From the NCBI GenBank assembly GCA_965237955.1, contig OZ250169.1, forward strand, positions 1,824,001 to 1,888,000: a stretch of 64,000 bases of DNA, in the 5' to 3' direction. The position numbers and the translations under genes are program-made. The DNA comes from Candidatus Marinacidobacterales bacterium (GTDB taxonomy: Bacteria; Acidobacteriota; Vicinamibacteria; Marinacidobacterales; SMYC01). The stretch's first letter is position 1; each line of letters starts with the position of its first letter. The notes under the pieces were generated by a model that made no database searches, was not told the DNA's origin, and saw nothing but the letters and a program-made list of their open reading frames with translations. Positions 22,295 through 40,592 of the stretch are shown in pieces.

Positions 22295-23680
22295 CTACTC
22301 GTCCGTCTCGTCCGCGTCTTCCTTCACTTGAATCAGATCACCCCGCACCAGATGAATCTTGTCGAAGCTCTCCGCTGAGATGACGTAGTACCAGGGGGCG
22401 AAGCGCTCGGAGAGCTCTTCCGACGTCTCCTGACCCTCTGCGATCTCGTCCTCCCAGCTCTTGTGGTCGTCCGCGAGTTTCTTGTTCTCTTTGTCGTCGT
22501 CCGACCATTCGCTTTGTTCTTTGTCCTCGAAGTCGCGGTTCGCCGGTCGCGGAGGCTCCGGGAGTGCCGAGCCGTCGAAATCGGCGGTGATGAAGAGATA
22601 GCGGTTCTCTCCCGGTCCAGCTTCCTCTTCGCCGGTCGAGTCGTCGCCGGCGCTGATGGCTTCACCGCTTCCGTACAAAATCTCTCCGAAGCGAAGCGTG
22701 TAGAAGACTCCTTCGTCGGTTCGCACCTGTAGCTCGCCTTCGTTCGACAGGAGGTCGCCGGTACGGGTCAGATAGAAGCCACGACTCTGCAACGACAAAA
22801 CGTCCGCGCGAGAGATCGTCAGTCCCGACAACCGTTCGTCGATGCCTTCGGGCTTGGGCCGAACGCCGACGATGGAGAGATTATCCACCGCGCGCAACAA
22901 GTCGTTCATTTTCGTCGAGTCGACTTCCTGGTTGGCGCGCATGCCGTTCGCGGTCCAGGTGCCGTCGTTCTTGTCGAGGGTGACGGTATCGCGTTCATCG
23001 ACCATGAGCGTGCGCTCGTTGATCGAGTAGTCTTTCAGGATCACGTGGCCGATGTTCGTTTGCTGAACTTCGAGAAGATCGCTCTCGATCCAGTCTTCGA
23101 ACTTCGTCGAAATGTCGACGTCGATCTTGGCTGCGTAGACACGCTTTTGTCCTGGTACCCGAACGAAGTGGAAGTTCTCGCGACCTTCGATCTCGTTCCC
23201 GACGATGATGTCGGCGAGGATCTTGTCGTTTTCGCCCTTGATGGTGACACGCTTGCCCCGGCCGCGGAGGCTCGTCGCCGTTTCGTCGAGCGGGTCGAGG
23301 ACACCGAGTGTTTCGTGGTCGGCGACGTTGTCCGAGCGAAAGTCGTCTTTGGTGACGGTGATGATGCCGGCGGCCGTCTCGGCGAGTCGATCTTCGCCAT
23401 CGGCGACGTAGTTGTGGTGCGACGGGATTGTCCACAGCCCGTTCTGATTGGTGACCTTGAACGGTCGCGCTGCCGCGGTATCCTCGTCGAACTCGATCAC
23501 CTCGAGCGTGGTCGCGACGTTGGGATCTTCGAAGTCCGGAAAAAACGGCTCACCTTGGTCGAGGAAAGCGCTCGGCGTCACGTTGCGGGGTGCGGTGACG
23601 ATGGCGACGATCATAAGGAGCAGCGCGGCGCCCGCCAGTGTTTTGGTGAGCTTCAGCTCGCTCTCTCGTTCTTCTACCAT
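22295..23680 (-). CDS. DUF4340-like membrane-anchored protein of Gld-type ABC system
   Basis: Single N-terminal TM, repeated 'W...' beta units; last gene of the GldA/GldFG-like operon. Confidence 0.75.
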   Translation of the reverse strand: MVEERESELKLTKTLAGAALLLMIVAIVTAPRNVTPSAFLDQGEPFFPDFEDPNVATTLEVIEFDEDTAAARPFKVTNQNGLWTIPSHHNYVADGEDRLAETAAGIITVTKDDFRSDNVADHETLGVLDPLDETATSLRGRGKRVTIKGENDKILADIIVGNEIEGRENFHFVRVPGQKRVYAAKIDVDISTKFEDWIESDLLEVQQTNIGHVILKDYSINERTLMVDERDTVTLDKNDGTWTANGMRANQEVDSTKMNDLLRAVDNLSIVGVRPKPEGIDERLSGLTISRADVLSLQSRGFYLTRTGDLLSNEGELQVRTDEGVFYTLRFGEILYGSGEAISAGDDSTGEEEAGPGENRYLFITADFDGSALPEPPRPANRDFEDKEQSEWSDDDKENKKLADDHKSWEDEIAEGQETSEELSERFAPWYYVISAESFDKIHLVRGDLIQVKEDADETDE

Positions 23681-26389
23681 TTACGCTCCCTCCCTCAGAC
23701 GATGGGCCGCTAGGGCGCCTTCTCGCTCGCGTTCTCTGCGACGGATGAAGATGTAAACGCCGAGCAAAAATACCGGAATCGGCGGCAGCAGTACCGCCAA
23801 CGTGCGGATGCCGCTCTGAATGCGCCGAATCTGGGACTCCATTCTTTGCTCGCTCGCTCGAATCTCGGCGTCCTTCTCGGCGTCGATGTTGGTCTTGAGC
23901 ACGTCGAGCTTTCGGTTTTCGACCTCTTCGAGGTTGCGCGCCATGATTTGCTTTGTCTGGGCGTCCACGTCGTCGCGGACCCGCACTTCGGCGACTTTCT
24001 CGTCCAGCCGGCGTTGTGCCGCGGCGAGCGCCTGCTCGGCGCGCATCTCGGCTTGCGACTCTTCCTGCGTGCGCTGCTCGATGAAATCGCGGGTCTGATT
24101 CTCCACGCGCTCCAGTGTTCGGTGCCGAACCCGCCGGTTCCGGAGAGCCACAAAGGACTCGTCGCCGACGAGCGTGTCCATGGCGTTGAGGAAGAACGTG
24201 ACGTTGTCGAAGTTCAAGTTGCCGGGGCCAATCCGCCGGATCTCGAAGAACTGCTCCGAGATGAAGTCGAGGTCGGCGATGGCGATGACGTGAAGTGGCG
24301 GCCGGGCGGCGACAGCGTTCTCATCGTCGTCCTTGTCGGGCTCGTCGGGCTCGCCCGCGTCCTCTGTGCTGCGCACTTCGGCTGCGAGCGTGTACGTCAT
24401 CGGGTCCGGTTGGTGCGGCAAGTTGCGATTCAACTGAGAGCCCAGGAAATTCCGTTGGACCATCTGGAAATAAGGAAAGCGTCCCGAGATCGCGCCCGAC
24501 TGCAACAAAGCACGATAGGTCAGACCCTCGGCGGAAGCCGAATCGATGTGACCTGGATAGAGCAGCACCAGCTGTTGGAGCTTGGCGCTGGCCGCGTGGG
24601 CTTCGTTGAAGACTTCCGGGTTCTGATTACCGTGACCGAGGAACACGACTTCGGGTGGCAAGTGCGCCAAGTCCGGATGGGGGTTGTAGGTGTCCCACGT
24701 GATCATGGCCGGATCCCACCGGAAACCCAGGCCGGTGAGAAAGCCGCGGATATCGCCTTTCGGCTGTGCGGGTGGCTGTTGCTGCCGCATGAACGGGTTC
24801 TGGCTCGCTCCGGGCTGCTCCGATGGAGCGAGACTCAAGTTCACGATGGGAAGCGGATCCACGAGCAGAAGCGCCGGCGTGCCTAGTCGTATAAAGTCGG
24901 CCACGTTGTCCATTTGCTCTTGGGTGAGCGACGAGGGTAGGGCCACGAGGAGGCCGTCGACGTCTTCGGTGACGGGATTATCCGGCGTGATCTGAACGAC
25001 CTCGTACTGCTTGCGAAGCTCTTCGACCACCGACCACGACGGCGTCGACTGCATCGTCTGAAAGTCCAGCCCGCCGAACAGGCGCAGCGCGGTGTTGATG
25101 ACCCCTATTGTCTTCCGTTCGGTGTTGGCAACGACGCGAATGCTGCGCGCGATCTCGTACTCGGCCGGCAGCCCGCGATCGAAGAACGGGATGACCTGCT
25201 CCTCACCGCCGCAGGTAAAAGCGAGACCCAGGAAGACTTCGCTGAAGCCGGCGCGCGCTCTCTGGTGGTTCGGGATCTGCCGCGGCCCAATACCGAACTT
25301 CTCTCTTGCTTCCCGGGCCTCCTCGCTGAACGGCTCGGTATCGTAGATTGCGATCTGAACGCGTCCGCCGCTCGCCGATGCCACGTCCTTGAGGAGGCCA
25401 ACGACGTTCGCCCGCGTCTGCACGTACTGCTCGGGAACCGTCGGGCTGATGTAGGCCTGCACGAACACCGGCCGATCCCTGTCGATCTGGCCAACCAACG
25501 CCTTGGTCTCGCGGTTCAACGAGTGGAGCCGCTCGGCGGTTCCATCGACACGGAGGCCGAGTCGGCTCACGATCGAAACGCCAGCGACGAGGATGACGAC
25601 GACGGACACGGCGCGCACGAGATGATGTGTCGACATGCGAACCCCGTCTGCCTCACGCGGCCAGTGACGCTGGCTGACGAGGAGCACGTTCAGGTACAGG
25701 AACACGCCGGTGACCGAAACGAAGTAGAGAGCTCCGGTGAAGCTTACGACACCGCGCGCGAAGTCCTCGAAGTGATGGAAGATGCCGAGAGGCGCCACGA
25801 TCCGCGCGAGATCGACGCTCAACGTCCCCGCCATCGCTTCGATGAAAACGCCCATGCTGCAAAAAACAGCGCCGAGAATGAAAGCGATGGTCACGTTCGA
25901 AGAGAGCTGCGACGCCAGCATACCGACCGCGATGAGCGTCGCGCCTATTAGCCAGTAGCCCAGGTAGTTCACCAACATCAGGCCCAAGTCGGGGCTGCCG
26001 AGGAAAAGAAGCACGACGACGTGGCTGAGCGAGAGCACGAGCGACACGGTATAGATGCCGAGCGCCGCGCCGTATTTCCCGAGCACGACTTCTAGATCCG
26101 TCGCCGGCAGCGTGAACAGCAGCTCGTCCGTACCCTGCTTCTTCTCTTCCGCCCATATCGACATGGTGAGCGCGGGCACGAAGAACACGAGGAGGTACGG
26201 AAAGACCGCGTTCAGCTGGTCGAGGTTGGCGAGGTTGTTCAGGAAGAAGCGATCCTGCCAGAAAGCAGCCGCCGCGCTCAAGAAAATGAAAAGGGTAATA
26301 AAGACATAACCAGTGGGATTGCTGAAGTACATGCGCAGATCCCGCTTGGCGATGGCGCGGACGATGTTCCAATTCACGTCTTTGATCAT
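23681..26389 (-). CDS. Fused GldF/GldG-like ABC-2 permease + periplasmic domain
   Basis: AIAKRDLRMYFSNPTGY, PALTMSIWAEEKKQGTDELLFTLP, HFEDFARGV, 'EYEIARSI', IADLDF, C-terminal TM. Confidence 0.85.
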   Translation of the reverse strand: MIKDVNWNIVRAIAKRDLRMYFSNPTGYVFITLFIFLSAAAAFWQDRFFLNNLANLDQLNAVFPYLLVFFVPALTMSIWAEEKKQGTDELLFTLPATDLEVVLGKYGAALGIYTVSLVLSLSHVVVLLFLGSPDLGLMLVNYLGYWLIGATLIAVGMLASQLSSNVTIAFILGAVFCSMGVFIEAMAGTLSVDLARIVAPLGIFHHFEDFARGVVSFTGALYFVSVTGVFLYLNVLLVSQRHWPREADGVRMSTHHLVRAVSVVVILVAGVSIVSRLGLRVDGTAERLHSLNRETKALVGQIDRDRPVFVQAYISPTVPEQYVQTRANVVGLLKDVASASGGRVQIAIYDTEPFSEEAREAREKFGIGPRQIPNHQRARAGFSEVFLGLAFTCGGEEQVIPFFDRGLPAEYEIARSIRVVANTERKTIGVINTALRLFGGLDFQTMQSTPSWSVVEELRKQYEVVQITPDNPVTEDVDGLLVALPSSLTQEQMDNVADFIRLGTPALLLVDPLPIVNLSLAPSEQPGASQNPFMRQQQPPAQPKGDIRGFLTGLGFRWDPAMITWDTYNPHPDLAHLPPEVVFLGHGNQNPEVFNEAHAASAKLQQLVLLYPGHIDSASAEGLTYRALLQSGAISGRFPYFQMVQRNFLGSQLNRNLPHQPDPMTYTLAAEVRSTEDAGEPDEPDKDDDENAVAARPPLHVIAIADLDFISEQFFEIRRIGPGNLNFDNVTFFLNAMDTLVGDESFVALRNRRVRHRTLERVENQTRDFIEQRTQEESQAEMRAEQALAAAQRRLDEKVAEVRVRDDVDAQTKQIMARNLEEVENRKLDVLKTNIDAEKDAEIRASEQRMESQIRRIQSGIRTLAVLLPPIPVFLLGVYIFIRRREREREGALAAHRLREGA

Positions 26390-27141
26390 GATGCCGGTGC
26401 CTCTGCCGTGTTCTCGTTCTGGGTCAGACGATAGAACGGTTCCTCGAGCGAGCCGCCTTCTTTGAGCTCGTCGGCGGTGCCTTCGAACACCAGCCGGCCG
26501 TTGTGAACGAACAGCACGTGGTCGGCGATCGCCGCGACCTCTTGAAGAATGTGCGTCGAGATGAGGATGGTCTTGTCACGCCCGAGCTTCTTGATGTTGT
26601 TGCGAAAATGACGAATCTGGTTGGGGTCGAGCCCCGCGGTGGGCTCGTCCATGATGAGGACGTCCGGGTCGTGAAGAAGCGCTTGCGCGAGCCCGACGCG
26701 CTGGCGCAAGCCGCGCGACAGCTTGCTGATGGGCTTTTCCAGAACCTCGTGGAGCGCACACAGGTCGCGAACGTCGGCGATCCGCCTTTTGAGCGTCGTC
26801 GGGTCGATCTCGCGCGCCTCGCCGAAGAACTCGAGGAGCTCGAGCGGCGTCATATCGAGATAGAGCGGTCCGTTCTCGGGCAGATAGCCGAGTCTCTTCG
26901 ACGCCGCGATCCGTTCTTTGTGGACATCGAGTCCCGCGATCCGAGCGGAGCCTGCGCTCGGCGCGAGATAGCCGGTGAGCATTTTCATCGTCGTCGTCTT
27001 GCCGGCGCCGTTCGGCCCTAAAAAGGCCACGATCTGCCCCTCGGGTATCGAGAAGCTGATGTTGTCCGTCGCGACGAAAGGCCCGTAGTACTTGGTCAGG
27101 CCACAGGCTTCGATCATCGTTTTCGAAGATGCTTCCTCCAT
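26386..27141 (-). CDS. ABC transporter ATP-binding protein (GldA-like)
   Basis: GPNGAGKTT, LSRGLRQR, LIMDEPTAGLDP, STH; AGGAGG before ATG 27141. Confidence 0.92.
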   Translation of the reverse strand: MEEASSKTMIEACGLTKYYGPFVATDNISFSIPEGQIVAFLGPNGAGKTTTMKMLTGYLAPSAGSARIAGLDVHKERIAASKRLGYLPENGPLYLDMTPLELLEFFGEAREIDPTTLKRRIADVRDLCALHEVLEKPISKLSRGLRQRVGLAQALLHDPDVLIMDEPTAGLDPNQIRHFRNNIKKLGRDKTILISTHILQEVAAIADHVLFVHNGRLVFEGTADELKEGGSLEEPFYRLTQNENTAEAPAS

Positions 27142-27341
27142 CGAACGAATACCTCCTGAGCGATCGTTGTCGTTAACGGTCGGCAGGCGGGAGCGCGCGC
27201 GACCGAACCAGATTCTACTCAAAGCGTTTCGCGGAGACAAGTCGATTGCACGCTGTAAGCGATACAAATAAAAGATTTAAACCCAGGTAGTGAAATAACC
27301 CTTTGAAAAAGCTTAGTATTCGAGCCTAAGCCGTCGACCAC

Positions 27342-30005
27342 ATGTCCCAGCGCAAACGCTTTCTCGTGCCCGAGGTCGTCCAATCGTCGGGGATGGACTG
27401 TGGTCCAGCCGCGCTCAAAGCGTTCGTCGAGGGCCACGGAGTGTCGGTGAGCTATGGCCGACTGCGCGAAGCCTGCCAGACCGACGTCGACGGGACTGCG
27501 ATCGAGACCCTCGAAGAGATCGCGAACGAGCTCGGCGTTCTCGTGGAGCAAGTCATGCTCCCGAAAGATCTCGTGCTGCTCGAAGAGGCTGAAGCGCTGC
27601 CGTGCATTGCAGTCATGCGGCTTCCGAACGGCAACACCCACTTCGCGGTGATTTGGAGCGTGGTCGCAGGCATCGTCCAGGTGATGGATCCAGCGACGGG
27701 ACGCCGGTGGATGACGCGTGGCCAGCTCGTGCACGAGCTCTACGAGCACAACCTGCCGGTGCCGGCCGGAGACTGGCGTGAGTGGGCGAGCTCTGAGCAG
27801 GGACTGGGCCTCCTCACAAGACGTCTTTCCGCATTGAATGTTTCGAAGGGCACGGTCGACGAGCTCATCAGGAAGGCGCTGTCGGATCCCAGCTGGCGAT
27901 CGCTCGCGGCGCTCGACGCGGCCGTGCGCGCGGTGCGATCCATGCTCGATGCCGGCGCGTGCCGCAGTGGTGACGAAGCGGCGTCCCTCGTCGCTACGTT
28001 ATTCAAAGATGCCGACTCCATCCCCAGGAGCTACTGGTCTACGAAAGCGTTGCCGGATGCGCCTGGGCCAGATACTGATAACGACGTCGTGGACGAGATC
28101 ATGATCAGGGGCGCGGTACTCCTGCGACTCGACCGATCGCCCGCGAGCGAGAGAGTTTCCTCGCCGTCGCTTTCGCGGGCAATCGAGGCGGCGCGTGACG
28201 AAGAGCCGGCCCGGCCGGGGTGGGAGCTTTGGTCGCGGATCCGTGAAGACGGGCTCCTCACGCCGGCGGTCCTTGTCGCGGCGTTTGCCGGCGCCGCCGC
28301 AGCGGTTGTCATCGAGGCTCTTTTGTTCCGGTCTCTTCTCGAGCTCGCGCCGCTCTTCGGGCTTTCCGAGTATCGCGTCGGCATCGTCGGCGCCCTTCTC
28401 GCGTTCATGTTGGTAGCACTCGTGATCGACTACGCCGCGATCACCGGCGAGCTTCGTATCGGCCGGCGCTTGGAGGCGCGACTTCGGGTCGCGTTTCAAG
28501 AGAAAATCCCGCGGCTCGGAGATCGCTACTTCGGCAGCCGGCTCATCTCCGACATGGCGGAGCGCAACCACAGCATCCACTTGTTGAGGACGCTGCCCAA
28601 GCTCGCGGGCCAGCTCCTGCGGACGAGTTTCGAGATGGTTCTCACCACGGCGGCGATTATCTGGCTGGAGCCCGGGACGAGTGTGGTGGTGCTGCTCGTC
28701 GTGGCCGCGTCGCTTGTGATCCCGCTCGCGGGCCAGCCCGTGTTTCAAGAGCGCGATCTTCGGGTGCGAAGCCACGTCGGAGCGCTGAGCCGGTTCTATC
28801 TCGATGCGCTCTTAGGACTGATTCCGCTACGCGTCCACGGCGCGCAGAAACCGATTCGGACCGAGCACGAGAGTCTCCTCGTCGAGTGGGCGCGCGCGCG
28901 GCTCGGATTGCAACGGATGGCCACAGGCCTCGAAGCCGCGCAGTTTTGCGTCGGCTACGGTTTGATTGTGCTGTTGCTGCTCTCGTACTTGAATCAAGGC
29001 GGTGAGCCGGCGGCGGTGTTGCTCCTCGCTTACTGGGCGTTGAATCTTCCCGTGCTCGGTCTTCAGCTCGTTCGGCTCGCGTGGCGCTACCCGGAGCAGC
29101 GGAATACGGCTCTGCGTGTGACTGAGCCGCTCCGCGCGAGCGAGGAGTCTGAGCAAGCGCCCGTCGCTGACCGCACCCCCTTGGGCACGGGTCCTATTGC
29201 TATTCGATTGGAGAACGCCACGGTACGCAGGGCGGGTCACGTCATTCTCGACAACCTCGACGTCGACATCGACGCTGGCAGCCACGTCGCGATCGTCGGC
29301 CGATCGGGCTCGGGCAAGACGAGTCTGTTCGGTCTTCTGCTCGGCTGGCACTTTCCCGACGAAGGCCGAGTCCTCGTCGACGGTTCCATTCTGGGCGGCG
29401 AGCGTTTAGACGAGATGCGGGCGCGTACCGCCTGGGTCGACCCCGCAGTGCAGATCTGGAATCGCAGTCTCATCGAGAACCTTCGCTATGGGAACGACAA
29501 CCGCGCGGAGTTTCCGCTGGCAACGATCGTCGAGCAAGCCGAGCTCTTGCCGGTGCTCGAGATGTTGCCCCAAGGACATCAGACGCTGCTTGGTGAGGGA
29601 GGCGGCCTCGTTTCCGGCGGTGAAGGCCAACGAGTTCGGCTGGGACGAGCCCTGTTGCGGCCGGATGTTTCCCTCGTGCTCCTCGACGAGCCGTTTCGCG
29701 GTCTCGGGCGTGAGCTGCGCGCGGTGCTTCTGCGACGAGCGCGCGCGCATTGGCGGGAGGCCACGCTTTTGTGCATCACCCACGATATGAGCGAGACCGA
29801 GGGATTCGATCGCGTGCTCGTCCTCGACGGGGGCCGTATCGTCGAAGACGGACCACCGGGCGAGCTCTTGTCTCGGAAGAGCTCGCGATACCGCGCGCTC
29901 GTCGATTCCGAACGTGAGCTCAGGTCGCTTTGGTCCGACGGTTCGTGGCGCAAGTGGGAAATCCGCGACGGTGCGATTCACGAGCGTGAGCATGAGGCCC
30001 TTTGA
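27342..30005 (+). CDS. Peptidase C39-containing ABC transporter (PCAT), subunit 1
   Basis: VVQSSGMDCGPAAL (catalytic Cys), THFAVIW (His), VMDPATG (Asp); TM domain; GRSGSGKT, VSGGE, LLDEP, ITHD. Confidence 0.9.
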   Translation: MSQRKRFLVPEVVQSSGMDCGPAALKAFVEGHGVSVSYGRLREACQTDVDGTAIETLEEIANELGVLVEQVMLPKDLVLLEEAEALPCIAVMRLPNGNTHFAVIWSVVAGIVQVMDPATGRRWMTRGQLVHELYEHNLPVPAGDWREWASSEQGLGLLTRRLSALNVSKGTVDELIRKALSDPSWRSLAALDAAVRAVRSMLDAGACRSGDEAASLVATLFKDADSIPRSYWSTKALPDAPGPDTDNDVVDEIMIRGAVLLRLDRSPASERVSSPSLSRAIEAARDEEPARPGWELWSRIREDGLLTPAVLVAAFAGAAAAVVIEALLFRSLLELAPLFGLSEYRVGIVGALLAFMLVALVIDYAAITGELRIGRRLEARLRVAFQEKIPRLGDRYFGSRLISDMAERNHSIHLLRTLPKLAGQLLRTSFEMVLTTAAIIWLEPGTSVVVLLVVAASLVIPLAGQPVFQERDLRVRSHVGALSRFYLDALLGLIPLRVHGAQKPIRTEHESLLVEWARARLGLQRMATGLEAAQFCVGYGLIVLLLLSYLNQGGEPAAVLLLAYWALNLPVLGLQLVRLAWRYPEQRNTALRVTEPLRASEESEQAPVADRTPLGTGPIAIRLENATVRRAGHVILDNLDVDIDAGSHVAIVGRSGSGKTSLFGLLLGWHFPDEGRVLVDGSILGGERLDEMRARTAWVDPAVQIWNRSLIENLRYGNDNRAEFPLATIVEQAELLPVLEMLPQGHQTLLGEGGGLVSGGEGQRVRLGRALLRPDVSLVLLDEPFRGLGRELRAVLLRRARAHWREATLLCITHDMSETEGFDRVLVLDGGRIVEDGPPGELLSRKSSRYRALVDSERELRSLWSDGSWRKWEIRDGAIHEREHEAL

Positions 30006-32113
30006 TGTCGATGCGACATAGCTGGCCGCGCGCTCGGCTGGGCGAAGGGCTGAAAGCGCTTGCGCGGAAGAGCGGGATGCCGGTTTCGAGACCAGACTCG
30101 AACGAAGACGCGCCCCCGCCTCCGGCGGAAGGAGAAAATCTAGGCGAGTGGATGGACGCCGGGGCGCGCTGGCTCGGCATCGAAGCTACGGCGTTGAGCT
30201 TGCCGCACCCCGAGCTCGCGAGTTTTCTCCGCGCTCCCGGGCCCGCCATCGTGCGGGTGGCGGACGATGAGTTCCTCCTGGTGATGTCGGCGACGCGGCG
30301 TGAGCTTCGAGTTCTCGGCGATGACGGCCAGCCGCATCGCGTGGCTCGAGACGCCGTCGCGCGCGCCCTCGAAGAGCGGATTGGTGGCGACGCGGAGGGC
30401 GAAGTCGAAGCGCTCCTCGAGAGCGTTTCCTTGTCGGCTCCCGACAAGGCACGTGCTTACATGATCGAAGAGCGTCTGAACGACGAGACCATCGACGATA
30501 TCTGGCTCGTGCGCTCGCCGCCCGGCGCGAGCGTCGCCGAAGATGTGCGGCAATCGCGCGTTTTGCGATTTTTGGCGGCGTTCGTGGGCACCTACTTCAT
30601 CGACTACAGCCTGTTCATCGCTTCGTGGTGGCTCATCGGCCGCGGTGCGCTGCGCGGACAGATCGATTGGGGCTGGCTCACAGCGTGGGCGCTCTTGTTC
30701 GCCACCATGGTGCCGTTCCGCATGATGTCGACGTGGTACCAGGGACGAACCGCGGTCGCGGCGGGTGGGCTCCTCAAGCAGAGGCTCTTGCTCGGCGCCA
30801 TGCGCCTCGATCCGGACGAGACCCGTCAGGATGGATTCGGCCGCCATCTCGCCCGCGTCCTCGAATCCGAGGCCGTCGAATCGTCGGCGATGAGCGGCGG
30901 TCTGCTCTCGGCAGCAGCCAGCATGGAGCTCGTCATCGCGGCGGTGATCCTGTCGTTCGGCTCCGGCGGTCTCCTCCACGTCTTCCTTCTCGTCCTCACC
31001 GTGTTCGCGTGCTTCCTGGTCGCGTGGCGGTATTTCGTATCGCGGCGCGCGTGGACAGGAGCGCGCTTTCGCATCAGCCACGATGTGCTCGAGCGCATGG
31101 TGGGTTATCGCACACGACTGGCGCAGTTGCGCCCCGACGCCCGGCACGAGCGCGAAGACGAAAGCCTGGCGACGTATCTGGAAGTCTCCCGCGACGCCGA
31201 CCGTCTGTACGGCTGGCTAGCGGTGTTCGACCGGCTGTGGTTGCCGATCGGTGTGTTGGGTCTCGCGCCGGGCTTCATTGTTGGTCAAGCGACGCTCGGA
31301 CGGTTGGCGGTCGCACTCGGCGGCACCGTCCTCGCTGCGCGCGGACTGCAAAAGCTCGCGGACGGGCTCGCGGATCTGCTCGATGCCTGGATCGCGTGGG
31401 AGCGCATCGCTCCGCTCTTTCATGCTGCAGGCAGACGACCAGCTCCCGGCGACCCGAACGTGTTGAGTCTAGCGCGCCGACAAGGGGCGACGTCGAACGG
31501 ACGGCCGCTCCTGGAAGTGAAAGAGCTCAGCTACCGCTACGCCAATCGAAGCGAGCTGGTGATTCGCGGCGCTAGCTTCGGCGTCAAGACGGGCGACTGC
31601 ATTCTGCTGACGTCGCGATCCGGTGGTGGAAAATCGACGTTGGTTTCGCTCGTCAACGGACTGCGGACTCCCGCCACCGGAACGTTGCTCCTCGATGGCG
31701 TCGATCGGTTGAGTCTTGGCGCCGAAGCGTGGACGCGCCGGATCGCGACCGCACCGCAGTTTCACGAGAACCACGTCTTCACCGAAGTGTTCGCGTTCAA
31801 TCTCCTCATGGGCCGTCGCTGGCCTCCGACCGCCGAAGATTGGCGTGAAGCCGAAGGCCTCTGCCGTGAGCTCGGGCTCGGCGAGCTCCTCGACAAGATG
31901 CCCGGCGGGATGAACCAAATCGTCGGCGACACCGGCTGGCGACTCTCGCACGGCGAGCGCAGCCGGCTTTACTTGGCGCGCGCGTTGTTACAAGGAGCCG
32001 AGCTCGTGCTTCTCGACGAGAGCTTCGCCGCCCTCGACCCCGATAACTTGAGACAGGCGCTCCTCTGTGCACGGGAGAAAGCCGACACCCTCGTGGTGAT
32101 CGCTCACCCCTAG
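30002..32113 (+). CDS. ABC exporter subunit 2 (degenerate C39-like N-terminus, degenerate ATPase motifs)
   Basis: Overlaps subunit 1. No DCG motif; TM domain; Walker A SRSGGGKS, signature LSHGE, LLDES; ends right at the H-loop (VIAHP*). Confidence 0.85.
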   Translation: MMSMRHSWPRARLGEGLKALARKSGMPVSRPDSNEDAPPPPAEGENLGEWMDAGARWLGIEATALSLPHPELASFLRAPGPAIVRVADDEFLLVMSATRRELRVLGDDGQPHRVARDAVARALEERIGGDAEGEVEALLESVSLSAPDKARAYMIEERLNDETIDDIWLVRSPPGASVAEDVRQSRVLRFLAAFVGTYFIDYSLFIASWWLIGRGALRGQIDWGWLTAWALLFATMVPFRMMSTWYQGRTAVAAGGLLKQRLLLGAMRLDPDETRQDGFGRHLARVLESEAVESSAMSGGLLSAAASMELVIAAVILSFGSGGLLHVFLLVLTVFACFLVAWRYFVSRRAWTGARFRISHDVLERMVGYRTRLAQLRPDARHEREDESLATYLEVSRDADRLYGWLAVFDRLWLPIGVLGLAPGFIVGQATLGRLAVALGGTVLAARGLQKLADGLADLLDAWIAWERIAPLFHAAGRRPAPGDPNVLSLARRQGATSNGRPLLEVKELSYRYANRSELVIRGASFGVKTGDCILLTSRSGGGKSTLVSLVNGLRTPATGTLLLDGVDRLSLGAEAWTRRIATAPQFHENHVFTEVFAFNLLMGRRWPPTAEDWREAEGLCRELGLGELLDKMPGGMNQIVGDTGWRLSHGERSRLYLARALLQGAELVLLDESFAALDPDNLRQALLCAREKADTLVVIAHP

Positions 32114-32242
32114 TCCCCTGGATCTTTGATTACTATACAAAGTTAGGCTTTTCGCCAGCCCATAAGATTCATAAGATTCATGCACTTAGAATGGTTTCGG
32201 CAAGCTCTGCTTTATCTAGTTTGTTCTGATACAGGGGACTAG
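32110..32242 (-). mobile_element. IS630-type MITE (133 bp including both CTAG)
   Basis: Ends CTAGTCCCCTGGATCTTTGATTAC and (revcomp) CTAGTCCCCTGTATCAGAACAAACTAGA match the right and left ends of the IS630 at 34501-35689; no ORF. Confidence 0.88.
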
Positions 32243-32349
32243 TCGGCGTGGTCGTCCACCTTCGCTTTGGTGATCAGCGCGACTTCGGTGGCGCCCGCGG
32301 TGCGGCAGCGGTCCATCATCTCGAGCACATAACCGTACTGGAGGCGTTT
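32239..32349 (-). pseudogene. 3' remnant of an exbD/tolR gene
   Basis: Manual translation KRLQYGYVLEMMDRCRTAGATEVALITKAKVDDHAD* aligns with the ExbD C-terminus at 3465-3570 (GLEYRDVMRVMELCRDGGADEIGLITEK); 5' part absent. Confidence 0.75.
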
Positions 32350-32498
32350 TCGACGCGTTCTGAGGGGTTGGACACCGTCCCGGGGAAGAGGTTCCGTGCT
32401 GGGAAGTCCGTGGTACGGACCTCTCGAAGCGTTACTTTTTTACACAGCATTGTGGGCTTGACACCACGAAAAAGCGTCTCGATATATGACCATTTCGA

Positions 32499-33943
32499 GG
32501 AGATGCCCCTGAGATAGTTGAAGGTTAGGAGTGGCGGCTCCTAAGGCCGGGTTCGATAGAATCCGGCTGTGAAGGAAAAAGAAAGGAGCCACCACGATGT
32601 CAAATTACCAAATCATCGATGCGAAGAACAGGAAGAAGCTTCGAGAGATACTGAGCTCGAAGGGGCAAGCTCTGTTGCCGTTCTTGGATGCGATTGAGCG
32701 AACCGAGATAGCGATCGACGAAGTGATCGACGTTGCTGGCCGAGCGACGATCGAAGCGGTCTTGGATCTGTCAGCCCAAAGTGTGGCTGGGGAGAAACAC
32801 CTGGGGAAGAAGGGTAGCGATGTTCGCTGGCACGGCCGGCAGGGTGGCGTAGTAAGCCTTGCGGAGCGGAAGTTGAGAGTGAGCCGGCCACGTCTGCGGC
32901 GTAAGGGAAAGGCAGAGGGAGGGGAGGTTGCGATTCCTGCCTACGAAGCGGTGAACAACTCGTCTCGGCTGAGCCAACGCATCTGGGAAATCCTGATGCT
33001 GGGTGTGTCGACGCGCAAGTACGCGTCGGTTCTTCCCGAGATGGCGGAGACGGTAGGGGTTAGCAAGAGCGAGGTGAGCCGTGAGTTCGTGGAAGCAAGC
33101 GCGGAGCAGTTGCAGGGGCTGATGGAGCATCCGCTGGACGAGCTGGAGATCGCGGTCGTGTACCTGGACGGGATTCGCTTCGGCGAGCACCACGCGCTGG
33201 CGGCAATCGGCGTAGATACAGAGGGATACAAGCATGTTCTGGGGCTTCGGGATGGAGCATCGGAGAACCAGATAGTGTGCAAGGCGCTGCTGGAGGACCT
33301 GGTCGAACGAGGCCTGAGCCCAGAGCGGTGTCGGCTGTTCGTGATCGATGGCTCCAAGGCGCTACGGGTCGCCGTCGACGCTGTGTTCGGTACCCACAAC
33401 AAGGTCCAGCGTTGCAGGAAGCACAAGGAGCGCAATGTGCTCGGTTATCTGCCGCAGGAGCTGAAGCCGCAAGTGCAAGCGAGCCTGCGTTCGGCCTGGC
33501 AGCTCCCAGCAAAGAAGGGCAAAGCGCGGTTGGAGCAACAGGCGAAGTGGCTCGAGGACGACTACCCCTCGGCGGCGGAGAGCATCCGGGAGGGGCTCGA
33601 CGAGATGTTCACCATCAACGAGCTCGACCTCCCCGCATCTCTGAAACGCTGCCTTGGATCGACGAACATCATCGAGTCGTGCTTCAGCGGTGCGCGAGGT
33701 CGTACCCGTCGCGTCACCCGCTGGCGCAATGGCAAGATGGTTCTGAGATGGGCCGCTTCGGCTCTGCTCGCCACGGAGAAAAATTTCCGTCGTATCATTG
33801 GATACCAATCGCTACCGATCCTCGAAGCGAAGTTAGCGGAGGTCACTGAGAATCAAGCGCTCGACAAGCACGCCAAAGTCGGGTAAACCATGTGTCAGGA
33901 GCCGCCACCACCTCGAACCTTCAACTATGGTGGGGGCACCTCC
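32499..33943 (+). mobile_element. IS256-family insertion sequence (1445 bp)
   Basis: TIRs GGAGATGCCCCTGAGATAGTTGAAGGTT and (revcomp) GGAGGTGCCCCCACCATAGTTGAAGGTT; 8-bp DR CATTTCGA (32491-32498, 33944-33951). Confidence 0.93.
32597..33886 (+). CDS. IS256-family transposase
   Basis: GVSTRKY, YLDGI, FVIDGSKAL, QRCRKHKERN, STNIIES. Confidence 0.95.
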   Translation: MSNYQIIDAKNRKKLREILSSKGQALLPFLDAIERTEIAIDEVIDVAGRATIEAVLDLSAQSVAGEKHLGKKGSDVRWHGRQGGVVSLAERKLRVSRPRLRRKGKAEGGEVAIPAYEAVNNSSRLSQRIWEILMLGVSTRKYASVLPEMAETVGVSKSEVSREFVEASAEQLQGLMEHPLDELEIAVVYLDGIRFGEHHALAAIGVDTEGYKHVLGLRDGASENQIVCKALLEDLVERGLSPERCRLFVIDGSKALRVAVDAVFGTHNKVQRCRKHKERNVLGYLPQELKPQVQASLRSAWQLPAKKGKARLEQQAKWLEDDYPSAAESIREGLDEMFTINELDLPASLKRCLGSTNIIESCFSGARGRTRRVTRWRNGKMVLRWAASALLATEKNFRRIIGYQSLPILEAKLAEVTENQALDKHAKVG

Positions 33944-34033
33944 CATTTCGATGCTGGCAACGACTGTAGTCATGAACGTTGCAACATGTCTCTTAAGCGG
34001 GTAAAGAGGCAAATCTAATAAAGGAGTACTTCG

Positions 34034-34096
34034 ATGAAAGTCAAAACCCGAATCCAATCTGGTAGTGGTGGAAACCAGTTCAATCACTATCCCTGA
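34034..34096 (+). CDS. 20-aa putative exported peptide precursor MKVKTRIQSGSGGNQFNHYP
   Basis: AAGGAG at 34021-34026, 7 nt before ATG; SG/GG cleavage-type motif; terminator directly after; downstream of a C39 exporter. Not in the ORF track. Confidence 0.72.
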   Translation: MKVKTRIQSGSGGNQFNHYP

Positions 34097-34109
34097 GCGT
34101 AATTAGTAC

Positions 34110-34138
34110 AGGGCAGCCTTGTAGCTGCCCTTTTTTTT
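34110..34138 (+). terminator. Intrinsic terminator of the peptide gene
   Basis: AGGGCAGC-CTTGTA-GCTGCCCT hairpin plus T8. Confidence 0.85.
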
Positions 34139-34500
34139 GGGACTTATACCTATGGCTTGACACGCGCCCGCCGCTTCCGGTGGGCGGCGAGGCTGGATTT
34201 GGCATGGCGCTTGCGCTTGCGCTTCCGCTCGTCGTCACCGTCCTGCGGCTTAGGTTTGATTTTTTTGGTGCGTGGTAGCGGGCGTTTTCTAAGCAAGTCG
34301 TTTATTTACAACTGCTTAGGTACGAGGTGTGGATCGTAATAAGTCATCGTGTCTCCCGTTGGGAGACAGCCGGACGAGCCCGGCCTCGGTGAGTTCGGGC
34401 GCTGTGGGCTGCGCCAGCAGCCCAGCCATGTAGCGGCGGCGGATTTCCCTGTTTCCTAGCGGCTTCCGTGTTCCACTATCGCCCTTATGGGGTTGTCAAG

Positions 34501-35689
34501 CTAGTCCCATGGAACAGAAAAAGCTAGACAACACTGGCACTTCTGTGATCTGCTAAATGCATGAAACACAAGGGCCGGCGAAAAGCCGAATTGAAGCTGT
34601 CGTCTCAAGAAAGCGAAGCGCTGACGCGACTGGCGCGACGCAGCCGTAGTTCGCCGCACCAAGCCTTCCGAGCGAAGATCGTGCTGGATTGCGCGGCGGG
34701 TCTGACGAATATGGAAGTTGCTAGGAAGATGCACACCATGAGGAGCACGGTGGGCAAGTGGCGAAGACGCTTTGTAGAACAACGAATGGAAGGGTTGTAC
34801 GACGAACCTCGGCCGGGAGCGGCTCGCAAAATCGGCGATGACCAGATCGAGGAAGTCGTGACCAAGACGCTGGCGACGACTCCAAAGGGGAGAACCCATT
34901 GGAGTACGCGCTCGATGGCCAAGCATCTTGGGCTGAGTCATTCGACGATTGGACGTATTTGGCGAACGTTCGGGCTTCAACCGCACCGCTCGGAATCGTT
35001 TCGTCTCTCGCAAGACCCACAACTGGTCGAAAAAGTACGCGACGTTGTTGGCCTGTATATGAACCCACCGGATAACGCGGTCGTCCTGTGCGTCGACGAG
35101 AAATCGCAGATTCAAGCGCTCGAGCGTGCTCAACCTGTCCTGCCCATGAGCTTGGGCCAGCCCGAGCGACAAACCCACGACTACATTCGGCATGGAACGA
35201 CTGACCTGTTTGCCGCACTCGACGCCGCAACAGGTGAAGTCTTCGGAAAGTGCTACGCGCGACATCGAGCGCTAGAGTTCAAGAAGTTCCTCGCTGAGAT
35301 CGAAGCAGCCGTTCCCAGCGAGTTGGACATCCACGTCGTGCTCGACAATCTCGCCACGCACAAGACACCGGCGATCAAACGCTGGCTTTCCAAGCGACCT
35401 CGCTTCCACTTTCACTTCACACCGACACACGCCTCTTGGCTCAACTTCGCTGAGCGCTTCTTTGGCTTGCTCACCGAACACGCCTTGCGACGAGGCTCGC
35501 ACACGAGCGTGCCTCAGCTCCGCGTTGCGATACAAGACTATCTCGATGCTCACAACGAGAACCCAAAGCCGTTCAAGTGGACGAAATCCGCCGACCAAAT
35601 CCTCGAAACCATCGCTCGGTTCGCCCAGCGAACGCTCGATACACATGGCAAATCGAATTTGGACAGTAATTAAAGATCCAGGGGACTAG
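34501..35689 (+). mobile_element. IS630-family insertion sequence
   Basis: CTAG at both ends; CTAGTCCCATGG... / ...CCAGGGGACTAG. Confidence 0.92.
34561..35673 (+). CDS. IS630-family transposase
   Basis: [52 protein letters not shown]. Confidence 0.95.
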
Positions 35690-35795
35690 CGGTATAAGTC
35701 CCTTTTTTTTTGCGTGGACCCTCCTTTGGCTTGGTTCACGGCGGCTGAGCGTCGTTTTCACGAACCGCACGACAGGTTCGGCAGACCTGGTGGGA

Positions 35796-38700
35796 TCACC
35801 GGACGTTCAAGGTCGCGGGTTCGTCCATCTTGCGCCGTAAGTCTTCCGCACGCTCGACGATGCGAACCCCGTCGAACTCGGTGGCGATCGTTATCGATTG
35901 CTCGATCTCCACAAGCGCGCGTTCGGGCTCGCCGAGAGCGATGTAGAGCTCGGCGCGGCTGGCGCGCGCGATGGCTTGGAGCGGGCGGAGACGGCGTCCT
36001 TCGATGGTGCCGATCACCTGGGAAAGAAGCTCGGAAGCCATGCGCACGTCGTTGGCGTCTAGGCGTGCACGTGCGAGCTCTAGAGTCGCCTCGAGCTCAA
36101 GCTCGAGATACCCGCTCTTTTGCGAAAGCTCCCGCGACGCGACCAGCGTGCTCGACGCTGATTTTGCTTCCCCTTTTGTCCGAAGCAGAATCCCTCGTAC
36201 GAGTTGTAGCAAGGGTTCTAGACCCTCGGTGTCGACTTCACTAAGCGCTTTGTCCGCACTAGCCAATGCGTGCTCCGCCTCGGCGATGCGATTCTGAACG
36301 AGGTGCAGCCGCGCTTCCTGTATCTTCGATTGAGCGATACGCGCCGGGATGTGCTGCGCGTCGCTTACCGTTAGGCTTTCGACGACCGACTGCATCGCCT
36401 CTTCGTAGCGCCCCTGGTCGGCGTAGATTCTGGATAGCTCTTCATGAGCAGCCGCAGCGTCCGCTAAGTTACCTGTTTCTTGGAGCAGCGGAATCGAGCC
36501 CAAGAAAGCCTCGATGGCTTCTTTGTAATCGCCCTTGACCCGGTAGATTTGACCGTGATTGAAGAGATTGTAGGCGCGTCCCTTGGGATCGTTGGAAGCG
36601 GCGATGTGGACTTTGGCCTGCTCCAAGTAAACCATCGCGTCGGCGTATCTGCCTAGGAGAGAGTAGACGTGCCCAATCATGTTGAGACGATCGGTAAGCT
36701 CCGAATGCTGTTTGCGCTCCCACTCGATCTCGAGCGAGTCACTATAGTTGGTGAGAGCTTTCTGCAAGAAGCCTGAGCTTTCATTGACGGAGCCGAGGTT
36801 GATGAGCGCGAAGGACTCCATCGTGGAGTTACCAGTGTCACGAGCGATTGATAGTGCTTCGTCGAGAAGCGTGCGCGCCTGCTCTAGCTGGCCCATGTGC
36901 TGGTGTACCGTCGCTAAGTTCGTAAGCGTGGCGCTCACGCCGCGGCTGTTCTCCGCGGTTCGGCGGTAGTCTAGTGACTTCTGAAGCTCTTTGGTCGCAA
37001 CGTCGAATTCATTCAAGTCTCGATGGAGCGACGCCCAGGATCGAGTGGATCATCCCGAGCGCCTCGAAATCGCCCTTGAATGCGCCCGCATCCACGGCTT
37101 GCTCGAGAATCGGGATCGCCTCGCGGGTCCGCTTGTTCGTCACGAGCATGCGCCCCAGTCCCAAGAGCGCCCCCCCGTATTGGGGGTCGCGCTCGAGCAC
37201 ATCACGATATTTGCGGATCGCTTCGTCGACTTGTCCCATTGTCTCGAGCGAGCTCGCGAGGCTGTACAGAACGCCGGGATCGTTGGGATAAAGCTTCTGG
37301 AGCTCGCGATAGCTCTCGACGGCCGTCTCCGGGTCGTCGTGGATCCGGGCGGCAATCGCGTGTACCTCGTACCTCTCGCCTCGCGGTAGCTGGACGATTT
37401 GCGCGAGACGCTCGGCTTCGGCGATGGCCTCGCGAGCGCCTGACTCGTTTCCGAGGTGGAAGAACGCTTCGGCGAGGCGCGCGTGCGCCATGGCGAAACC
37501 TGAATCCTCCGCGATCGCCTCTTGGAAAAGAGGCACCGCGGCTTGGTTCGCACCGTCATGAAGCGCATCGAGACCCTGGTGGTACGCTCGAAAGGCCCCC
37601 AACGATGCCGTGGAAACTTCGTGGATCGGTCGGTCGACCCCCGCTTCGAGGTCCAGTTCCTTCGCAACCTCCACGGTGATGGCGTCCACGAGGCCGAAAA
37701 CCTCGGTAGCTGGGCCGTTGATCTGAATCGGTGTGCTGACCCCGGTTCGGCTGTCGCGCAGAACTAGATCCATCCGCAGCTGCTCTTGTGCTTCCACGAA
37801 GCGTCCGTGCAGGGAGACTTGCGCGTCCGCCATTTCCGAGACAACACCAAGCGTTTGCTCGTCGAACCGGCTCTGGCCCTCCTTGCCGAGATCCTTCAGG
37901 ATTTGATTCATGTGCGCTGGCGTCACCGGTCTCAACGTGGGTGACTGCGAGATATCGGTAATCAACATCTCGGGGATACCGATCTCCATCCACGCCAAAT
38001 CTTGGGCGCCGGTCACGTTGTGGAACGGGAGCACCGCGAGCGTGGTGGTTGGAACATCGGCGGCCACACGCGGAGGTGGCTGGGTCAGGTTGTACCAAAC
38101 GCCGACACCGAGCGCGCCTGCGAGACACGCTGCAGCGACCCAGCCTGGCCTACGGCTCACGGCCTTCTTCGTGCGGAGCCACAACGAGGAGTCGACTTGC
38201 TCGCGCGTCAGGTCTTCGAGCACTTCTTCCGCGCTGTGGTAGCGAAGGTCCGGATCCGCTTCGAGGCATTTGAGAATGATGCGCTCGAGGTAGCCAGGGA
38301 TATCGGGATTCGACTCGCGTGGAGAGGGAGCCTTCGTCTGAATTCGCGCGACGATCTTCGAGATCGCCGTGTCGCCTTTGAACGGCGTTTCGCCGGTGAG
38401 AAGCTCGTAGAGAATCACGCCGAACGAGTAGAGGTCCGACTGGGCGTCCGCGGTCTCACCTTTGACCTGCTCGGGGGAGATGTAATCGGGGGTTCCCATC
38501 ATCTCGCCCGTGCCCGTCATCGTCGCCGAGTCGGCGGTGCGAGCGATGCCGAAGTCCATGATCCGGACGACCCCGCGGCCGTCGACCATGATGTTCTGCG
38601 GCTTGAGGTCCCGGTGCACCACGCCTTGGCTGTGGGCTTCGGCGAGCCCGCTCAGCATCTGCTTCATGAACGACAGCGTCTCGGCGACGGGGACTTTTTC

Positions 38701-39267
38701 TTTCTCGTCCAACACCTCGCGCAAGTTCGCCCCTTCGATGAGCTCCATGGTGAAGAACTTCATCCCCTCGAACTCGCCGAGGTCGTAGATGCGGATGACG
38801 TTCTTGTGGGTGACTTTGCGCGCGAGGATCAGCTCTTGCTTGAAGCGCTCGAGAATTTCGCGGCTCGTGCTCTTCTCGGCGCGGATCGTCTTGAGCGCCA
38901 CCGCCCGGTCGAGCTCGAGATCGAGCGCTTTGTAGACGCGGCCCATGCCGCCTTCGCCGAGTTTCTGGAGGATTTGATAGCGATTGCCGAATCGGAACAG
39001 TCGAGGTAGCTCGCCGGTGTACTGGGATGGGGTCGAGAACCGCCAAAGCGACTCACGCGGACCGACCTCGTCGTCCTCGGACATCTCGCGAGCGGCGCGC
39101 AGGAGCTCGTCGGTCTCGGCCGAGGTGGTGCGTGAGCCGCCGATCATCTCGATCGGATCGGTCTTCGAGTCATCCTCTGGCTCGAACGCATTTACCAGGA
39201 GCGCGTTGCAGAGCGCGCACTCCATGCGGTCCGCGGCATTGTCGCGGCCGCAAGCTGGGCAATCCAC
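35796..39267 (-). CDS. Membrane Ser/Thr protein kinase with N-terminal Zn ribbon and extracytoplasmic TolB-N-like + TPR domain (+1 frameshift near 37025)
   Basis: CPAC...CALC; LGEGGMGRVYKA, VALK, HRDLKPQN, MDFGIA, YISPEQ; TM; 'LAVLPFHN'; many TPRs. Deleting one G at 37025/6 gives ...ILGVAHRDLNEFDVA..., fusing ORFs 37009-39300 and 35796-37016. Confidence 0.85.
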
Positions 39268-39830: not shown

Positions 39831-39893
39831 TAGGTTGTCGCTAGGGTCGTCTTGCACGATCGGCGCGGTGTGCGTCATGCTAGGAAGTTAACT

Positions 39894-40592
39894 ATGGCTA
39901 GCGACGGACCTTCTCAACCTCCTCAACCTCCTCAAACGGGACCACCGGCACCCGCGGAGCCCGAGCTCGCGCCCTACATGATCGAAGGCGCTCGCTCGAG
40001 CCGCTCGAAGTGCAAGAGTTGCCGGAAGAAGATCGAAAAAGGAGTGCTGCGCCTCGGCGTTCTCATCGAAGGGCCCTATGGCGTCGGATACCTGTGGCAT
40101 CACCTCACCTGTGCCGCGAAACGACGGCTCGACGACGTCGAAGCTGCCTACGAGCGCGAGGCTTGGAAAGAAGCGAAAGAACCTCCGGAAGACGTGCCTT
40201 CGATCGAAGAGATGCGCAAGCTCAACGAAGAGGCGGAGGAAAAGCGCGAGCAACGAAAGAAAATTCCGTTCGCTGAAGTGGATCCGTCCGGTCGAGCGAA
40301 GTGCAAGCATTGTGGCGAGGTCATGGAGAAAGGAAGTCTCCGCGTGGTTCTCGGCCGGGAGATCGAGTTCGGAAGCCAGTACCGGACGATGCCGATTCAC
40401 GTGCACGGGTTGTGTGTCGCCGGCGAGATCGAGAAAGTCGACTGCAGCACGCTATCAGAAGGCTTCGAGCATTCACTTCGCCAGAACACCCGCGGGCTTA
40501 CTGAGGAACAGGTCGAATCGGTGTTGAAGGATATCGGCGAGCTTCCCGACGACCCCGAGACTGATGAGACTGAGGACGCCCCGCCGTTTTGA
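39894..40592 (+). CDS. Protein with two PARP-type zinc fingers
   Basis: IEGARSSRSKCKSCRKKIEKGVLRLG...WHHLTC and AEVDPSGRAKCKHCGEVMEKGSLRV...HVHGLC (CxxC...HxxC). Confidence 0.8.
   Translation: MASDGPSQPPQPPQTGPPAPAEPELAPYMIEGARSSRSKCKSCRKKIEKGVLRLGVLIEGPYGVGYLWHHLTCAAKRRLDDVEAAYEREAWKEAKEPPEDVPSIEEMRKLNEEAEEKREQRKKIPFAEVDPSGRAKCKHCGEVMEKGSLRVVLGREIEFGSQYRTMPIHVHGLCVAGEIEKVDCSTLSEGFEHSLRQNTRGLTEEQVESVLKDIGELPDDPETDETEDAPPF

Follow-up and report, generated by a model that had tools for sequence, protein, structure and literature searches.

A candidate peptide-signalling module of Acidobacteriota joins a two-subunit C39 exporter and a variable short peptide to a predicted TPR receptor kinase

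In the streptococcal ComC-ComAB-ComDE and BlpC circuits, a small precursor with a Gly-Gly, Ala-Gly or Ser-Gly-type site is handled by an exporter with a C39 triad, and its variable core is sensed by a membrane receptor, a histidine kinase (PMC6363468; here and below, PMC numbers stand for excerpts of the papers). We analysed a 64,000-nucleotide stretch of a Candidatus Marinacidobacterales genome (Acidobacteriota; assembly GCA_965237955.1, contig OZ250169.1, positions 1,824,001 to 1,888,000; hereafter, the window), in which two ABC exporter subunits, a gene for a 20-residue peptide and a convergent gene for a Hanks-type Ser/Thr kinase with tetratricopeptide repeats (TPRs) lie together between positions 27342 and 39267. 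This locus resembles those circuits in the small precursor, the type of cleavage site, the exporter triad, the variable core and the membrane receptor, whereas a Hanks kinase bearing a TPR ectodomain is predicted as its receptor, its host is a diderm Acidobacterium, its leader is limited to 10 residues and carries Lys at position -7, and its exporter consists of two different subunits. Across relatives, the leader and the kinase domain are fixed whereas the core and the C-terminal TPR part vary, and the module, which is real, conserved and apparently undescribed, is likely to be a strain-specific peptide signal with its receptor.

Other known systems share single features with the locus. NHLP/Nif11 exporters likewise combine HlyD, a peptidase-bearing ABC protein and a second ABC subunit (PMC2887384), but the three module proteins score far below the cut-offs of TIGR03794/03796/03797 (147 vs 853; 100 vs 709; 30 vs 156), the leaders here are 10 residues long rather than long NHase-like domains, and no maturases are encoded at the window locus. 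RRNPP proteins are similar in that recognition of a short linear peptide by a TPR coil is predicted (PMC13220807), but they are cytosolic and need the peptide to be re-imported, whereas the TPR part here is on the far side of a transmembrane (TM) segment, in one chain with a kinase. The module works like a Com/Blp-type pheromone circuit with an NHLP-like exporter layout, yet falls outside the definitions of Com/Blp, NHLP and RRNPP systems. The staphylococcal agr system has a comparable contiguous hypervariable stretch over peptide and receptor and, as here, natural receptor frameshift mutants, but there the peptide is a cyclic thiolactone, AgrB does the processing and the kinase is a histidine kinase (PMC12312760). 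RaxB, of the RaxX/RaxAB system of Xanthomonas, is a Gram-negative peptidase-containing ABC transporter (PCAT) exporting a peptide that is sensed by a receptor kinase, although that receptor is a plant leucine-rich-repeat kinase and RaxX is sulfated (PMC8872720). The ECF43-linked PknS/EcfK system of Xanthomonas citri contains the same kinase-TM-periplasmic TPR arrangement, with PknS signalling to an extracytoplasmic function (ECF) sigma factor and its signal described in that excerpt as unidentified (PMC13147305); PknS is without a known ligand or linked peptide, whereas our kinase combines a Zn ribbon with a TolB-like domain and some 15 TPR hairpins, and in the window it is not adjoined by an ECF sigma gene. 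DdvA/DdvS of Myxococcus, a periplasmic TPR-CHAT protein acting with ECF/anti-sigma functions, parallels a second peptide locus described below, but DdvA joins anti-sigma and CHAT in one chain, its signal being likewise given as unidentified in the excerpt (PMC11506125).

The window peptide gene (34034..34096, + strand) encodes a 10-residue leader ending in Ser-Gly and a 10-residue core. As the first-pass annotation had noticed, it has its own Shine-Dalgarno (SD) sequence (AAGGAG, 34021-34026) and an intrinsic terminator (34110..34138, + strand; a hairpin at 34110-34131, then a T-run), and a similar hairpin with a T-run was seen in many relatives. The fetched loci encode 42 distinct precursors whose leaders fit M-K-[VI]-[KR]-[TS]-x-[IV]-[KQR]-[AS]-G, a motif that also served as the search filter. 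The cores in families f1 and f2 comprise 5-12 residues and differ widely; Arg, Lys and Gly abound in many of them, several are neutral or acidic, and 11 of 33 short precursors end in Phe. An SD-like site precedes 29 of the 33 short precursors, compared with 160 of 1014 random ATGs (16% background). A surplus of third-position changes in the leaders (0.64 vs 0.21 and 0.18) carries little weight, as the search motif itself produces part of it. No NCBIfam match was obtained for the 20-, 60- and 72-aa precursors, and their Atlas neighbours are unnamed Acidobacteriota clusters. The leader agrees with the rules for C39 substrates at positions -1 and -2 (Ser-Gly) and -4 (Ile), as do those of the relatives, although there the motif required it. 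In distant genomes the leader is repeated inside multi-core precursors, which supports its role as a processing signal.

Linkage of peptide and receptor genes was the first line of evidence. Within families f1 and f2 we counted 26 leader-bearing loci, 22 of which adjoin a gene for a TPR-bearing Ser/Thr kinase (19) or a TPR-CHAT protein (3), with neighbours classed by Pfam labels, whereas only about 6% of the window genome lies as close to any kinase. Sixteen loci face a kinase of the window type (the unpublished G027, also used in the trees, is among them), two face a second kinase-TPR type, one follows a TPR kinase gene broken by an insertion sequence (IS) and three precede a TPR-CHAT gene; two of the other four lie at contig ends, one has only ECF and anti-sigma genes, and one (G033) has none. 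The exporter is present in 24 of 61 related genomes. The DNA pattern of the leader occurred in 12 of the 61, all of them exporter-bearing, and in none of the 37 without exporter, 28 of which belong to one family; a reversed control gave 0, and looser patterns together with the protein motif brought further leader loci. The order exporter-peptide-convergent kinase recurs both with the neighbours of the window and with unrelated ones (L037-L039, L081), and kinase and peptide genes still converge where the exporter is not adjacent (L095, L097, L098). The stop-to-stop gap between them is below 100 bp in 9 of the 11 loci checked, the other two being unresolved by the script. All three metagenome loci of sufficient length (L079-L081) show the pairing, and in L079 a kinase gene stands on both sides of the peptide gene. 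The expectation of the first-pass annotation that small leader ORFs (open reading frames) and convergent kinase-TM-TPR genes would accompany homologous exporter pairs was thus borne out in varied contexts, as was conservation of the kinase neighbourhood, since the block recurs with different flanking genes.

The receptor varies in its C-terminal TPR part. In kinase pairs whose catalytic domains are 88-98% identical, this part had a median identity of 42% in the peptide-linked-like group (20-81, 25 pairs) and of 91% in a peptide-free sister group (74-95, 9 pairs); it tells against this contrast that the P-proteins compared were grouped by similarity, not gene context, and that pairs overlap. 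The five sister kinases placed in trees form one clade (99/96 and 100/98). The window kinase is 87-91% identical to three close relatives in its N-terminal part and 58% in its C-terminal part, the drop beginning near the last 450 residues. Where the cores are known, identity of the middle TPRs was 97% with identical cores, 82% and 92% with cores differing by one residue, and 74% for G025/L080. Within genus g2, near-identical cores went with 82% middle TPR identity and different cores with 24-41%, the kinase domains all being 92-98% identical; here the frameshifted kinases of G001 and G016 lower some of the values, which again weakens the case. The proposal that the locus is a signalling module thus gained from the finding that the TPR part diversifies only in the peptide-linked clade and not in its sister; the first-pass annotation had not noticed that the window copy itself, with its frameshift and with IS256 behind the promoter, is damaged.

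Subunit A of the exporter (27342..30005, + strand) consists of a C39 peptidase domain (PF03412, E=8e-19), a conserved insertion, a transmembrane domain (TMD) and a nucleotide-binding domain (NBD; PF00005). Its triad, C20/H100/D116, is intact as first annotated, and its spacing resembles that of C27/H101/D117 in LahT (PMC6363468); C24 and H104 are invariant in 20 of 20 aligned homologues. With an N-terminal PF03412 domain above cut-off and the triad, fused to TMD and NBD, subunit A belongs with the PCAT/AMS exporters, while it remains under the cut-off of TIGR03796. The partner, subunit B (30002..32113, + strand; PF00005), has a TMD, an NBD with a degenerate signature (LSHGE) and a putative C39-like N-terminal domain, a lead that comes from Atlas feature matches of this part to clusters with Peptidase_C39 in 12-100% of members; a profile comparison of subunits A and B aligned them over the NBDs only. 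Subunit B ends directly past the His-switch motif, and its last five residues are common to 62 of 120 homologues. In some relatives subunit B is without the N-terminal ~190 residues (about 496 aa). The window genome is a single contig of 8.13 Mb in which each subunit is single-copy, and the nearest named homologues of the exporter are from Acidobacteriota, several of them labelled Ca. Marinacidobacterales. Although exporter, peptide and kinase had been recognized from the start, the HlyD adaptor and the further receptor types (TPR-CHAT with ECF/anti-sigma, ECF-type kinases) had been missed. In the window genome, HlyD and a small cytoplasmic kinase of ~300 aa form a detached pair at C1:6.707-6.710 Mb (L150:7434-9771); in other loci HlyD or the small kinase adjoins the exporter or the receptor, and HlyD stands next to the exporter in many. 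A GldG-like/DUF4340 ABC cluster (22295-27267, - strand) and a double zf-PARP protein gene (39852-40592, + strand) flank the module in family f1 and not in f2, and they therefore look like neighbours rather than parts.

The kinase gene is read from two pieces, 37009..39267 (- strand), which encodes the Zn ribbon, kinase domain, TM segment, TolB-like domain and N-terminal TPRs and ends at a frameshift near 37020, and 35796..37016 (- strand), the out-of-frame C-terminal TPR half, which matches TPR families, is in frame in relatives and is the hypervariable part. The Zn ribbon-kinase-TM-TPR architecture had been called correctly, but neither the frameshift nor the extra TolB-like domain had been seen. 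Two CxxC pairs and all Hanks motifs (Gly loop, VAxK, HRDLKPxN, DFG) are present, which places the protein among Hanks-type receptor kinases, with a sensor domain that is cut by the frameshift in the window genome. Between kinase and TPRs lies one moderately hydrophobic segment (residues 386-402; hydropathy only 1.66) behind a basic stretch, and from this segment we infer that the TPR part faces the periplasm. A model of the ectodomain of the intact G017 orthologue (predicted local distance difference test score 91.7; 57 sequences) consists of an alpha/beta domain, which we take to be TolB-like, with some 15 helical hairpins behind it. Below cut-off (E=6e-31), the ectodomain has a further match to TIGR04510, a cyclase whose name comes from a different peptide system. 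There are about 70 kinases per genome. In agreement with the first-pass annotation, the ORFs between 20 and 46 kb of the window include no histidine kinase and no response regulator, and neither was conserved beside the f1/f2 peptide genes read.

A plain sigma-70 consensus scan found no promoter for the peptide gene; a promoter-like element emerged from an alignment of the regions upstream of 17 peptide genes, with G011, G004 and G027 left out. In it TTGAC.C..C is invariant (17/17), a plausible -10 follows, and a GTTAC-N5-TAC-like box occurs in 12 of 17. The window element (32431..32487, + strand) has the box at 32431-32445, the -35 TTGACA at 32458-32463 and a weak -10; no such element was found within 130 nt upstream of the G011 peptide gene. 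With a matrix built from the 16 other loci, the window site (32428) was the best in the genome, at 49.7 vs 22.5 for the next, and no clear regulon appeared over the genome. The site scoring 22.5 precedes a globin-like gene (L165:7334-8052), presumably resembling protoglobin, and is probably unrelated. Near-identical genes for 18-aa peptides form arrays with 53-bp spacing and overlapping stop/start, five in G017 and three in G018 (L132:9258-9980, L134:9262-9950).

The window copy is interrupted by mobile elements, all of which the first-pass annotation had identified. A 133-bp miniature inverted-repeat transposable element (MITE) lies at the exporter stop codon (32110..32242; >100 near-identical genome copies by self-BLAST), an IS256-family element (32499..33943, + strand; PF00872, dozens of copies, 8-bp target duplication) separates the peptide promoter from the peptide gene, and a second MITE, delimited by self-BLAST, sits in the terminator T-run (34139..35702) with an IS630 nested at 34501-35689. 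Their excision leaves spacers of 346 bp between exporter and peptide and 135 bp between peptide and kinase stop, close to the ~340 and ~130 bp first estimated. The 133-bp MITE shares its end sequence with IS630 (32110-32242 vs 35658-35689) and was therefore probably mobilised by it, and the genome carries a heavy IS load. Contigs of runs X4 and X5 cross the IS256 insertion site without the element. The frameshift near 37020 splits the kinase gene into ORFs 39267-37009 and 37016-35796, whereas relatives have one ORF of 1160-1260 aa. An assembly error was considered and rejected: short-read contigs of X1, possibly the source sample, and X2 cross the site unchanged and without a gap, while the same-species protein P0126 is in frame there, so that the break is a natural polymorphism. 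With the receptor frameshifted and IS256 between promoter and peptide gene, the window copy of the circuit is probably off (silent or deaf), while intact alleles of each module part are carried by other strains of the species.

The peptide family also occurs beside other receptors. A second class, with Trp-containing cores, precedes a gene for a signal-peptide-bearing TPR-CHAT protein in the window genome (G000), G011 and G012; the G012 locus is intact and has ECF sigma and anti-sigma genes behind it. In G000 this second locus is decayed (L115:5528-8250; C1:3207527-3210200): a DUF4388 gene is divergent from a leader-bearing gene without an in-frame stop, a frameshifted, truncated signal-peptide TPR(-CHAT) gene follows, and in G011 and G004 the counterpart is joined to the kinase locus. 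The DUF4388 protein is encoded beside peptides in G004, G011, G012, G018 and G000, and in other genomes further kinases beside the peptide family have ECF genes next to them. In a phylum-wide sample the leader pattern occurred in 2 of 400 other genomes, and separately in 1 of 29 genomes of the G261 family; 23 matches in more distant genomes fall in two of them (Blastocatellia/Acidobacteriota). In Blastocatellia loci, exporter and leader also accompany a B12-radical-SAM (S-adenosylmethionine) enzyme above the TIGR03975 cut-off, a JmjC protein and a 380-aa TPR protein (L041:420-11595, L154:5432-8670), possibly an undescribed pathway for a peptide made on the ribosome and modified after translation (RiPP). 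Seven leader-bearing precursor genes lie on both strands within 2.7 kb at L160:2795-5450, where no receptor or maturase was seen. A ~360-aa protein of the distant genomes starts leader-like, without the final Gly, and other long ORFs adjoin peptide genes (L163:14342-15508, L153:12794-13867, L156:5564-7039); the leader may also tag larger cargo.

On these grounds it appears reasonably probable that the exporter cuts and exports the core and that the outer TPR coil of the kinase binds it, with a change in kinase activity. The two-subunit C39 exporter would cleave behind the last Gly of the 10-residue leader and send out the short core, perhaps through a type-I-like channel with the HlyD partner. 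The peptide of 5-12 aa would then re-enter the periplasm and bind the periplasm-facing TPR coil, probably through its C-terminal residues; binding would activate the Ser/Thr kinase and might feed back onto the promoter box. Candidates for the output are the small kinase, the DUF4388 protein and this box. As the convergent layout sets the variable 3' ends of the peptide and receptor genes side by side, the two could be exchanged together. The wider idea is an acidobacterial peptide-hormone-like language, with one 10-residue tag and one heterodimeric C39 exporter serving many variable peptides, each with its own extracytoplasmic TPR receptor and differing outputs (a Hanks kinase, an ECF-phosphorylating kinase or a caspase-like CHAT protease with an anti-sigma factor); this we advance tentatively, with slightly more doubt than belief.

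Several observations weigh against this reading of the module. The leader has no canonical hydrophobic residues at -7 and -12, since Lys occupies -7 and a leader of just 10 residues does not reach -12; canonical double-glycine leaders carry hydrophobic residues at both positions in a short helix, and changing Leu-7 to Lys impairs LahT (PMC6363468). It is therefore not a canonical double-glycine leader, and the alternation along its sequence points more to a strand than to a helix. In G033, remnants of the exporter and a peptide are present without such a kinase, no peptide was found in G007 and G015, which carry the kinase type, and in the sister clade of very similar kinases a peptide occurs in 0 of 6 loci, so that this receptor type needs no adjacent peptide. 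The genomes are related, and the linkage counts are not independent. Of the 13 peptide loci in the two distant genomes, only 6 have a gene for an ECF-type kinase or a CHAT protein next to them, the remaining ones standing alone or with JmjC or B12-radical-SAM genes. Finally, the cores of G009 and G013 differ while their receptors are flat at 88-93% (middle TPR 91%); the last four core residues are shared, which would fit either C-terminal recognition or no co-variation.

Some of these points would follow if the peptide were exported but the kinase were its upstream regulator or an old neighbour, sensing other things and with TPRs varying for other reasons, for example through host or phage proteins. 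The peptide-free sister clade and the about 70 kinases per genome mean that receptors exist without a peptide, the receptors of G009 and G013 have not diverged along with the cores, and the box conserved upstream of the promoter suggests that expression of the peptide is under regulation. This account is nevertheless unlikely given that accelerated TPR change is limited to the peptide-linked group, that peptides recur beside three other TPR receptor types and that the kinase-peptide pair outlasts loss of the exporter neighbourhood. That the cores are instead short cationic antagonists used in competition or as antimicrobials, with the kinase as a self/non-self or damage sensor, would suit the many Arg-, Lys- and Gly-rich cores, the common export of bacteriocins by C39 exporters (PMC6363468) and the five-copy tandem arrays of G017, which would raise the dose; yet 5-12 residues are very short for killing, several cores are neutral or acidic, and no conserved immunity gene stands beside the peptides in the loci read, which makes antagonism quite improbable. 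We consider it very improbable that enzymes encoded elsewhere modify the precursor as a RiPP, so that the product would not be the plain core. The leader and exporter family do occur with the TIGR03975 radical SAM enzyme and JmjC protein in Blastocatellia loci L041 and L154, but the f1/f2 loci read showed no maturase, and the cores are without a common modifiable residue; the initial description of the peptide as unmodified accordingly holds for f1/f2 loci and does not extend to the distant genomes, where the leader is found with RiPP maturases. An inhibitor or inverse agonist holding the kinase off, or a core acting only in the producer's periplasm, in place of an activator passing between cells, is scarcely plausible: the periplasmic domain of PknS seems to restrain autophosphorylation (PMC13147305) and HlyD is unlinked from the exporter in the window genome, but that genome has kept HlyD, and in many loci HlyD neighbours the exporter, in keeping with transport past the outer membrane.

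A literature search in which subscription journals were mostly outside coverage and supplements were not included gave no description of this peptide-exporter-kinase family. In the review passages considered, peptide receptors are histidine kinases or cytosolic RRNPP proteins, and neither 'Hanks' nor 'serine threonine' occurs in the excerpt of PMC13220807; the ligands described for bacterial receptor kinases in the excerpt of PMC3601408 are muropeptides. The module thus points to a new predicted receptor class for peptide signalling. If the wider idea of a peptide-hormone-like language is true, bacterial TPR receptor kinases would for the first time have peptide ligands encoded in the genome, a parallel to the peptide/receptor-kinase pairs of plants. 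The locus offers matched, synthesizable ligands of 5-12 aa for many natural receptor alleles, a peptide-free control clade and a predicted specificity region, so that it becomes testable in vitro, with no need to culture the host, what ligands a large class of orphan receptors has. Kin-specific communication within an abundant phylum of uncultured bacteria is hinted at as well.

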